Origin: an uncultured Dehalococcoidia bacterium
Lineage (GTDB): Bacteria; Chloroflexota; Dehalococcoidia; Bin125
Reading direction: 5' to 3'
NCBI GenBank assembly: GCA_964347635.1
Contig: CAYFZI010000001.1
Location: 29,322 to 93,321 of the forward strand
Length of the DNA stretch: 64,000 nt
Shown here piece by piece: positions 1,058 to 1,488 of this stretch. The position numbers and the translations under genes are program-made. Numbering within the stretch: position 1 is the stretch's first letter; the number at the start of each line of letters is the position of its first letter. Under the pieces are notes generated by a model that worked only from the letters and a program-made list of their open reading frames with translations, ran no database searches and was not told the origin of the DNA.

Positions 1058-1488
1058 GCGCGATTTTACATCGGCCGGCGGTTGTCCACGCGCTGCACAG
1101 GATTGAGCGCCGTTCTCAATCAGGTTTGTAAGCGGAGTGATCAAAATTCTCCTGTTAACGCTGTTGTTGTACATGTGGCTGTCGTGGACAACCGCAGCGC
1201 TGCAGCCCTGCAGCGCGCAATCCCGCGCTGCAGGGCTGTGACTGCTGGTGCAGCGGCGGGGCAGCGCTGGGGAACAGCTGTGGACAGCGGGGCGGGCCGC
1301 GCCGGGGGCCGCCGCAACACTCCCTGCCAAAGTGGAGGGGATGAGGCGGCTCCCGCGGGTGAACGAAGACGCCGCCGCCCCGCTGCTCCCTGCAAACTGG
1401 GAGGGAAGGCTGGGGCCTGCCTACGGGGCAGGGGGTGGAGCGGAGCGCAGCCGGCGGGACGGCTGAGGGTTCGGAATTCAGGCGGGCG
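1058..1488. other. Candidate chromosomal replication origin (oriC) in the obg-dnaA intergenic region
   Basis: A 430-bp non-coding gap lies next to dnaA. It has a locally AT-rich stretch (~1135-1180, ~36% GC against a ~70% background) that could be a DNA unwinding element. Three 9-mers match the high-GC DnaA-box consensus TTGTCCACA at 7/9 to 8/9: TTGTCCACG at 1082-1090, its reverse complement CGTGGACAA at 1183-1191, and TGTGGACAG at 1279-1287. Confidence 0.4.
1203..1238. repeat. Perfect 15-bp inverted repeat (hairpin) cagccctgcagcgcg/cgcgctgcagggctg with a 6-nt loop
   Basis: Read directly from the sequence. It lies ~250 bp past the dnaA stop on the minus strand and inside the candidate oriC region. 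It could be a terminator or an origin-associated structure. Confidence 0.5.

Follow-up and report, generated by a model that had tools for sequence, protein, structure and literature searches.

A conserved DnaA-box module with origin-like anatomy between dnaA and obg in high-GC Dehalococcoidia: a candidate oriC coupled to the obg promoter

Origins in which DnaA boxes flank the dnaA gene are known from Bacillus subtilis, whose oriC comprises incAB upstream and incC downstream of dnaA, and from Helicobacter pylori, with oriC1 and oriC2. In both, box clusters lie on either side of dnaA, the downstream cluster contains tandem same-sense boxes next to an AT-rich region, and dnaA is transcribed towards that cluster. 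A locus resembling them was analysed in a 64 kb stretch of DNA (the window; contig CAYFZI010000001.1, 70% G+C) from an uncultured Dehalococcoidia bacterium, in which a gap of 432 bp follows dnaA and precedes obg, both genes being on the minus strand. For these Chloroflexota of the class Dehalococcoidia, abundant and uncultured high-GC bacteria of soil and marine habitats, no replication origin has yet, to our knowledge, been defined. As judged from sequence, the gap contains a real DnaA assembly module, kept by selection, that has the anatomy of an origin and is conserved across the clade. The chances appear about even that the interval 1078–1290, coupled to the obg promoter, is either the whole of oriC or that half of a bipartite oriC in which unwinding would take place. 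In contrast to B. subtilis and H. pylori, the downstream gene is obg and not dnaN, and the AT-rich spacer is bounded on its far side by an inverted box that overlaps the predicted promoter of the next gene.

Three 9-mers with at most one mismatch to the DnaA-box consensus (8/9, the threshold used for all box counts) are present in the gap: the right, obg-proximal box TTGTCCACG at 1082–1090 on the plus strand, inverted relative to the others; the left box TTGTCCACG at 1183–1191 on the minus strand; and the upstream box CTGTCCACA at 1279–1287, also on the minus strand and belonging to the same same-sense array as the left boxes. A fourth, degenerate box, ACAGCCACA (1174–1182, minus strand), directly abuts the left box, with which it forms a tandem pair. 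The original prediction, which had proposed a candidate oriC in this gap, had scored its three boxes at 7/9 to 8/9; all three are present and all are 8/9. The other features on which it drew (the inverted box pair, an AT-rich stretch, a hairpin and the box TTATCCACT at 3097–3105) were likewise recovered to within one base. The inverted pair proved to be part of a perfect 13 bp inverted repeat, GCGGTTGTCCACG, with arms at 1078–1090 and 1183–1195 that enclose a 92 bp spacer.

The gap, which makes up 0.7% of the window, holds three of its eight boxes and is its densest 500 bp interval for DnaA boxes. Dinucleotide-preserving shuffles yielded 3.6 sites per 64 kb window against the eight observed and, since this figure applies to the whole window, about 0.024 boxes would be expected in the gap; by a Poisson estimate, at least three would occur there with a probability of about 2e-6. 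Enrichment over background, which the original prediction had set as a test of itself, is thus evident. The YCCAC core is likewise enriched 5- to 44-fold on the dnaA-sense strand of the dnaA–obg gap in all 17 loci tested, and in locus L002 the box density reaches 16.7 per kb, the strand-specific background there being 0.38 per kb.

The module was compared with 24 loci from a genome collection and a further 17 obtained through exact-protein look-ups. DnaA-based searches group the window with metagenome-assembled genomes labelled Dehalococcoidia or Chloroflexota, and a metagenome scan returned two loci only, both of types already known. Two loci are close to the window (L025, 97% identical, and L026, 99.9%), and the remainder are 48–70% identical at the DnaA level. 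Even at this distance a common layout is shared by more than 25 related Dehalococcoidia-class loci. In nearly every lineage, the sequence upstream of obg passes from several same-sense xxxTCCACx boxes to the tandem pair and a CAACAAC or ACAACAACGACAGC run, and thence, through an AT-rich spacer of about 60–70 bp, to the inverted box and a TAnnnT hexamer placed 6 nt before the obg ATG. The tandem left boxes are retained in relatives, for instance as TTATCCCCA+TTTCCCTGA or GTTTCCCCA+TTGCCCCAA, the right box matches TTATCCACA or TTGTCCACA perfectly in 11 of 20 lineages, and the boxes, with their invariant TCC.C and TGGA, are the best-conserved positions of a spacer that is otherwise unalignable across the clade. 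The starts of the left and right boxes are 101 bp apart in the window and 93–101 bp apart in the ten lineages in which both boxes have at most one mismatch.

The original prediction had described the boxes as being of an actinobacterial type, a label that does not hold. The oriC of Streptomyces and Mycobacterium, located in the dnaA–dnaN gap and built of TTGTCCACA boxes, resembles the locus in its high GC content and in the G at position 3 of the three boxes of the window, but the boxes are far fewer here and the gap is not a dnaA–dnaN gap. The sole within-box substitution between the window and L025 is a G-to-A change at the permissive position 3, giving TTATCCACG as the right box of L025. 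Since L025 reads TTATCCACG and most relatives carry the perfect Escherichia coli-type TTATCCACA at the same sites, the supposed high-GC box reduces to the familiar A/G wobble at position 3, and the box type is that of the general consensus and not an actinobacterial speciality. Domain IV of the DnaA encoded in the window carries the canonical RDHTT recognition motif.

The spacer between the inverted boxes contains the candidate DNA-unwinding element (1097–1176), which is the lowest-GC 80-mer of the window; its 50 bp at 1125–1174, at 38% GC, tie for the lowest-GC 50-mer, in agreement with the AT-rich stretch originally noted between the paired boxes. Spacers of relatives have 39–55% GC within genomes of 64–71% GC. 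Immediately after the tandem left boxes, on the minus strand, where these boxes read 5'-TTGTCCACG-3', there is a period-3 run with A in the middle position, GTACAACAACAGC (1160–1172), which is kept across the clade as CAACAACAAC or ACAACAACGACAGC. The mean length of such nAn runs is 3.8 triplets, compared with 1.2 for nTn runs, which would have the canonical trio polarity.

This arrangement recalls the basal unwinding system (BUS) of Richardson, Pelliciari and Murray, defined by a pair of boxes, a spacer no longer than 16 nt, at least three DnaA-trios (3'-nAn-5') on the strand reading 5'-TGTGGATAA-3' and an AT-rich region (PMC8287927). The likeness extends to a tandem pair with the stronger box upstream (TTGTCCACG followed by ACAGCCACA), after which come a short spacer, a run of period 3 and AT-rich sequence. 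On the other hand, the strand reading 5'-TGTGGATAA-3' carries (GTT)n here and the A-middle run is on its complement, so that, in a further departure from B. subtilis and H. pylori, the strand polarity of the trinucleotide run is opposite to that of DnaA-trios (PMC8287927). The box pair of the BUS is therefore present, and trios accompany neither box, which places the module outside the BUS as defined. Pelliciari et al. speculate that DnaA-trio variants might exist (PMC8287927), and the gap module may be a BUS variant.

At its other end the module reaches the start of obg. A -10-like hexamer, TAAAAT, is found at 1063–1068 on the minus strand, exactly 6 nt upstream of the obg ATG, and is the presumed promoter; all of the 20 lineages compared have TAnnnT at positions -12 to -7 from the obg ATG. 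No Shine–Dalgarno sequence precedes obg (1057–1068 and the homologous positions of 20 lineages), while dnaA has GGAGG. Together, the TAnnnT placed 6 nt before the ATG and the missing Shine–Dalgarno sequence suggest a leaderless mRNA, and obg is probably transcribed in this form, in which case the right box would overlap the predicted obg core promoter. This probable overlap with a leaderless promoter is a point absent from the original prediction. A scan for consensus sigma-70 promoters between 900 and 3300 made no calls, and a terminator scan of the same interval made a single call, at 1709–1726, inside dnaA.

The right box lies at -34 to -26 relative to the obg ATG in the window, in whose lineage group it starts at -34 or -35, and at -18 to -10 in most relatives, the difference being owing to an insertion of 16–17 nt. 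Since the box-to-box spacing stays fixed while the distance from box to promoter shifts, the constrained unit is box–spacer–box and not box–promoter. Such fixed geometry is more in keeping with an origin-type or looped DnaA complex than with a simple operator.

In E. coli, transcription of gidA and mioC at oriC and the DnaA-regulated promoters of dnaA and nrdAB provide further parallels, namely a promoter firing away from the unwinding element and a box placed over a core promoter; here, too, the box overlaps or abuts the presumed core promoter of obg. Differences from E. coli are that the promoter lies within about 25 bp of the box–spacer–box unit and is apparently leaderless, and that GATC enrichment of the SeqA type is missing: the modules have 13 Dam-type sites per kb against 9–10 per kb genome-wide. 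No IHF consensus was consistently seen in the spacers by eye, no formal scan being made. Within the same phylum, an origin of Dehalococcoides mccartyi 195 was predicted by DoriC/BUS at positions 1629–1661, downstream of dnaA (PMC8287927, Table S1). The two loci thus share a predicted origin directly downstream of dnaA, but their sequences are unrelated, and D. mccartyi has an AT-rich genome and a TTATCCTTA box. In D. mccartyi 195, too, obg probably follows dnaA; a literature check for this gene order in Dehalococcoides found nothing.

A second conserved group of boxes is located upstream of dnaA, in the dnaA–coaX gap, which ranks sixth among the lowest-GC stretches of the window. On the plus strand it contains the boxes CTCTCCACG (3086–3094) and TTATCCACT (3097–3105) and, on the minus strand, the invariant motif CTATCTGGT (3068–3076) and a -10-like TACGTT (3015–3020), which precedes the dnaA ATG by about 115 nt. 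Of the 18 relatives compared, most keep two or three boxes in tandem, together with CTATCTGGT and TAYGTT, between coaX and dnaA; the tandem arrangement is missing from L035. Because of this second cluster, the locus resembles the bipartite origins that flank dnaA. L025 differs from the window in this gap by a 31 bp insertion at position 3133/3134.

Taken as an origin, the locus could operate as follows. The boxes, their enrichment and conservation, the composition of the spacer, its fixed length and the promoter-like hexamer are observed directly, and from them we infer DnaA binding, unwinding, origin firing and transcriptional coupling. DnaA-ATP would bind the same-sense boxes at 1279–1287, 1183–1191 and 1174–1182 together with the inverted box at 1082–1090, the two sets bracketing a fixed-length spacer of about 92 bp that is predicted to be the least stable duplex of the window and would melt. 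The obg promoter, about 25 bp beyond the right box and with its -10 element 6 nt before the ATG of a putatively leaderless mRNA, would fire away from the spacer, and the negative supercoiling left behind RNA polymerase could aid its opening. DnaA at the right box may, in turn, gate obg transcription.

The gene order around the module bears on the same question. In the ancestral order of the clade, the block coaBC(-) coaX(-) dnaA(+) is followed by the module with obg(+) and nadD(+), and then by the block MT(-) gyrB(-) trmO(+) nudix(+) ychF(+) xdhC(+), so that gyrB is about 3 kb from the module. The order obg–dnaA–coaX without dnaN given in the original prediction was borne out by the ORF and profile scan, dnaA–obg being the ancestral arrangement. 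With the flanks of L025 and L041 added, without which the divergence is not visible, the genes are mostly directed away from the locus (obg side, 15 of 17; opposite side, 15 of 21). Gene-strand bias inside the window was rejected as an origin indicator, the count of 23 plus-strand against 25 minus-strand genes being uninformative. Near position 27000 of the window the prevailing orientation turns from mostly plus (3–27 kb, 16 of 19 genes) to mostly minus (27–64 kb) with no change in skew.

Around dnaA and the module, gene blocks have repeatedly swapped sides in inverted orientation, giving at least four local gene orders assembled from the same blocks (L001, L002, L014/L016/L017, L029, L030, L032 and L042 compared with the window). 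The gyrB block has moved in L001, L002, L030, L032 and L042, the tatA-to-M23 block in L029, and the module together with the gyrB block in L014, L016 and L017. Breakpoints recur at dnaA|module and nadD|MT, where small G+C-rich palindromic repeats are found; as the same repeat sits at both breakpoints of L030, such repeats may mediate the local inversions. Pivoting of blocks is typical of origin or terminus regions, though it is not proof of either.

Strand composition provides one observation in favour of an origin at the gap. In L025, a locus of 20.8 kb that extends 6.8 kb beyond obg, the third-codon-position (GC3) strand component is about -0.35 in the flank genes, weakens across gyrB, nadD and obg, and stays at about 0 in dnaA and beyond. 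Cumulative G-C reaches its lowest point in this locus at 7849, at a distance of 10 bp from the gap, and the upward step there has the polarity of an origin. Of the candidate oriC originally proposed, the enriched and conserved boxes, their position beside the AT-richest stretch and the oriC-like architecture stand, and confirmation by GC skew is lacking, in which the locus again differs from B. subtilis and H. pylori.

Several observations weigh against an origin at this site, the skew among them. The window has no replication-type skew, with a GC3 strand component of +0.016 over 62 kb; the step in L025 is one-sided and spread over about 5 kb; and a composite of the L025 flank and the window has its global cumulative minimum at about 42.6 kb and not in the gap. 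Five strongly skewed relatives show no change of sign at the homologous module: in L001 (-0.33), L002 (+0.56), L029 and L042 (of similar magnitude) and L035 (moderate), the component has a magnitude of 0.2–0.6 and a single sign across the module and dnaA for 5–16 kb each way, merely dipping in magnitude at obg, nadD and MT. Among these, L035 retains the ancestral order and the modules of L029 and L042 look intact. Since the sign is equal on both sides, the module is not a long-term polarity switch in these five; the original prediction had held that a skew minimum elsewhere would count against it, and for these relatives that is the outcome. Moreover, the module accompanies obg and not dnaA in L001, L029, L030, L032 and L042, and in L014, L016 and L017, from which obg has moved away, no module is found downstream of dnaA (the sequence upstream of obg is outside those loci). 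Canonical DnaA-trios are absent at either box: the A-middle run is on the strand opposite to the one that the left boxes would require, and for the right box its strand is correct but it is about 70 nt away. Finally, the overlap of the right box with the predicted obg core promoter is operator-like.

The remaining loci say little about skew. L003–L021, L027, L032, L041 and L043 have none and are uninformative, in L030 the component is weak, confined to the gyrB side and fading, and a left–right GC3 comparison of the 15 low-skew loci of L003–L021 with obg beside dnaA gave no signal. The strand asymmetry itself is uneven within the clade. It is extreme and independent of gene orientation (GC skew 0.15–0.3) over the whole loci of L001, L002, L029 and L042 and from about 5 kb to the end of L035, and is nil in the equally close relatives L027, L041, L043 and L032; its sign relative to dnaA varies between genomes. 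In L025, positions 1–7800 (xdhC to gyrB) are strongly C-rich, and the asymmetry is missing from 8300–20777 of L025 and 1500–64000 of the window, at least 62 kb, the boundary falling at obg and the gap; similar boundaries exist at PAP2|YbjQ in L035 and, more gradually, in L030. The boundary in L025 may stem from chimerism, recombination or variable fork direction. Import of its skewed flank from one of the sampled skewed relatives was considered and rejected, as no phylogenetic incongruence between the blocks was found. Unidirectional replication from the module was also rejected: fork direction relative to the module is 4:1 in the uniformly skewed loci and mixed when partial cases are included, which is not significant, and the pattern is more simply explained by a distant origin.

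The probable location of the right box over the promoter of a leaderless obg mRNA turns a regulatory explanation into a serious rival to that of an origin. According to this explanation, which seems possible if somewhat short of probable, the module is a non-origin DnaA-box cluster that controls the leaderless obg–nadD promoter, DnaA availability or both, is possibly a former origin, and leaves the true origin elsewhere. Repression or activation would be exerted, as is tentatively proposed with it, through the core-promoter box and cooperative oligomerization of DnaA on the upstream array, and the cluster might in addition serve, like datA, DARS or the DnaA-box clusters of B. subtilis, to titrate or recycle DnaA. 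It would account for the uniform fork polarity over module and dnaA in all five strongly skewed relatives, in which boxes are still strongly maintained (the 16.7 per kb cited above is from one of them), for the proximity of the right box, at either of its two positions, to an invariant TAnnnT, for the persistence of the module beside obg where dnaA and obg have separated, and for the lack of canonical trios. It accords less well with the varying position of the box relative to the promoter (-18 or -34) at a fixed box-to-box spacing, which would be unusual for an operator or activator site, and with the scale of the module, since 5–10 same-sense boxes and an inverted box around the AT-richest stretch of 64 kb are far above what is found at known DnaA-regulated promoters; the genes diverging from the locus, the blocks swapping sides around it and the origin-polarity step of L025 at the gap likewise speak for an origin. 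An oriC at this site, in turn, has on its side the box cluster above background, the AT-rich element adjoining the boxes (as far as composition goes) and an architecture conserved in relatives.

The one-sided step in L025, and its absence from relatives, would be expected if the module were one of at least two initiation sites, used in some cycles only, or an origin recently activated or silenced. The step runs from about -0.35 to about 0, never becoming positive, and at least 62 kb without skew follow in a genome that is strongly asymmetric elsewhere, with comparable boundaries in L035 and L030. Such an explanation is nevertheless improbable: it draws on composition alone, and the unskewed zone could equally stem from a history of recombination or rearrangement. 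We know of no established case of multiple chromosomal origins in bacteria. That the gap is merely a dnaA terminator and an obg promoter, in which the box-like 9-mers are chance matches in G+C-rich DNA, is scarcely credible. The G+C-rich hairpins after dnaA (fold z-score of -3.2 for 1190–1500 on the minus strand), the 15 bp palindrome at 1203–1238 and the promoter-like TAAAAT ahead of obg are what it would predict, but it is contradicted by the conservation of the boxes in an otherwise unalignable spacer, by three boxes where about 0.024 are expected and by the perfect TTATCCACA at the same place in 11 lineages, and the hairpin is neither conserved nor followed by a T-tract.

A more far-reaching proposal is regarded as unlikely. 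The origin-looking module of the clade would not be a polarity switch, either because initiation has moved away from dnaA and a complete DnaA-box and DUE-like unit has been kept as a DnaA-gated leaderless obg promoter, or because replication is non-standard, with several or partly used origins or strongly asymmetric fork movement; in addition, the (CAA)n run would represent a variant of the DnaA-trio in which the strand polarity is reversed or the middle base altered.

The palindrome that the original prediction had included among the features of the origin has perfect 15 bp stems at 1203–1217 and 1224–1238, as described, but is specific to the lineage and located outside the conserved module. 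It occurs once in the window; its counterpart in L025 (about 8005–8040) has two stem mismatches, both in one arm, and an inverted central 16 nt, as from a flip of the hairpin loop, and no counterpart exists in L001, L027 or L029. Unique, imperfect in L025 and missing from relatives, it was rejected as a repeated element or conserved part of an origin, and also as an intrinsic terminator, a T-run being missing on both strands and the scan having made no call there. Small G+C-rich hairpins of the CTCCC..GGGAG type, either REP-like or terminator-like, occupy the 3' flank of dnaA at 1320–1435. Palindromic repeats of the CTCCC(C)..GGGAG type are also intergenic in L030 (4940–4985 and 11710–11760), L001 (11440–11530) and L017 (11670–11710).

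The genes flanking the gap were assigned by profile. obg, encoding the GTPase Obg/CgtA, occupies 1–1056 on the minus strand (NCBIfam TIGR02729, 390 bits); its 5' 352 codons are present and it continues past the start of the window, the complete gene being found on L025, a contig 97% identical to the window. dnaA is at 1489–2901 on the minus strand (TIGR00362, 410 bits) and, divergent from it, coaX, encoding type III pantothenate kinase, is at 3171–3947 on the plus strand (NF009855, 294 bits), with coaBC and then pepA beyond. No dnaN, recF, gyrA, parAB or rpmH was found among the scanned ORFs of the 64 kb window, and an Rfam scan of the whole window gave no matches at the gathering score. Among the five closest lineages (the window, L001, L027, L029 and L030) DnaA is 63–69% identical and its neighbours are mainly 75–95% identical, the exceptions being NUDIX, methyltransferase and PAP2 at 66–77%. 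Elsewhere in the window, a gene for a D12-class (Dam-family) N6-adenine DNA methyltransferase (32326–33279) lies in the lowest-GC 2 kb bin (32000–34000, 61.6%) and may represent an acquired restriction–modification or orphan methylase island. Genes of toxin–antitoxin type also occur near the locus: the window encodes a SocA/Panacea antitoxin domain (36517–37116), and L042 has a gene for a ParE toxin (2426–2910), placed between coaBC and nadD.

The module belongs to a known class of element; what is unusual is that it is joined to the promoter of a probably leaderless obg, that its trio-like run has the reverse polarity and that strongly skewed relatives show no skew switch. Close relatives within the clade also vary hugely in strand asymmetry, the third-codon-position component ranging from 0 to 0.56. 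If the module is the origin, it would provide an anchor for orienting the genomes of these bacteria and for estimating growth rates from metagenomes by peak-to-trough ratios, and it would be an example both of an origin joined to the promoter of the cell-cycle GTPase gene obg and of one without canonical DnaA-trios. If it is not, it would be a striking case of a full origin-like DnaA module retained for another purpose.

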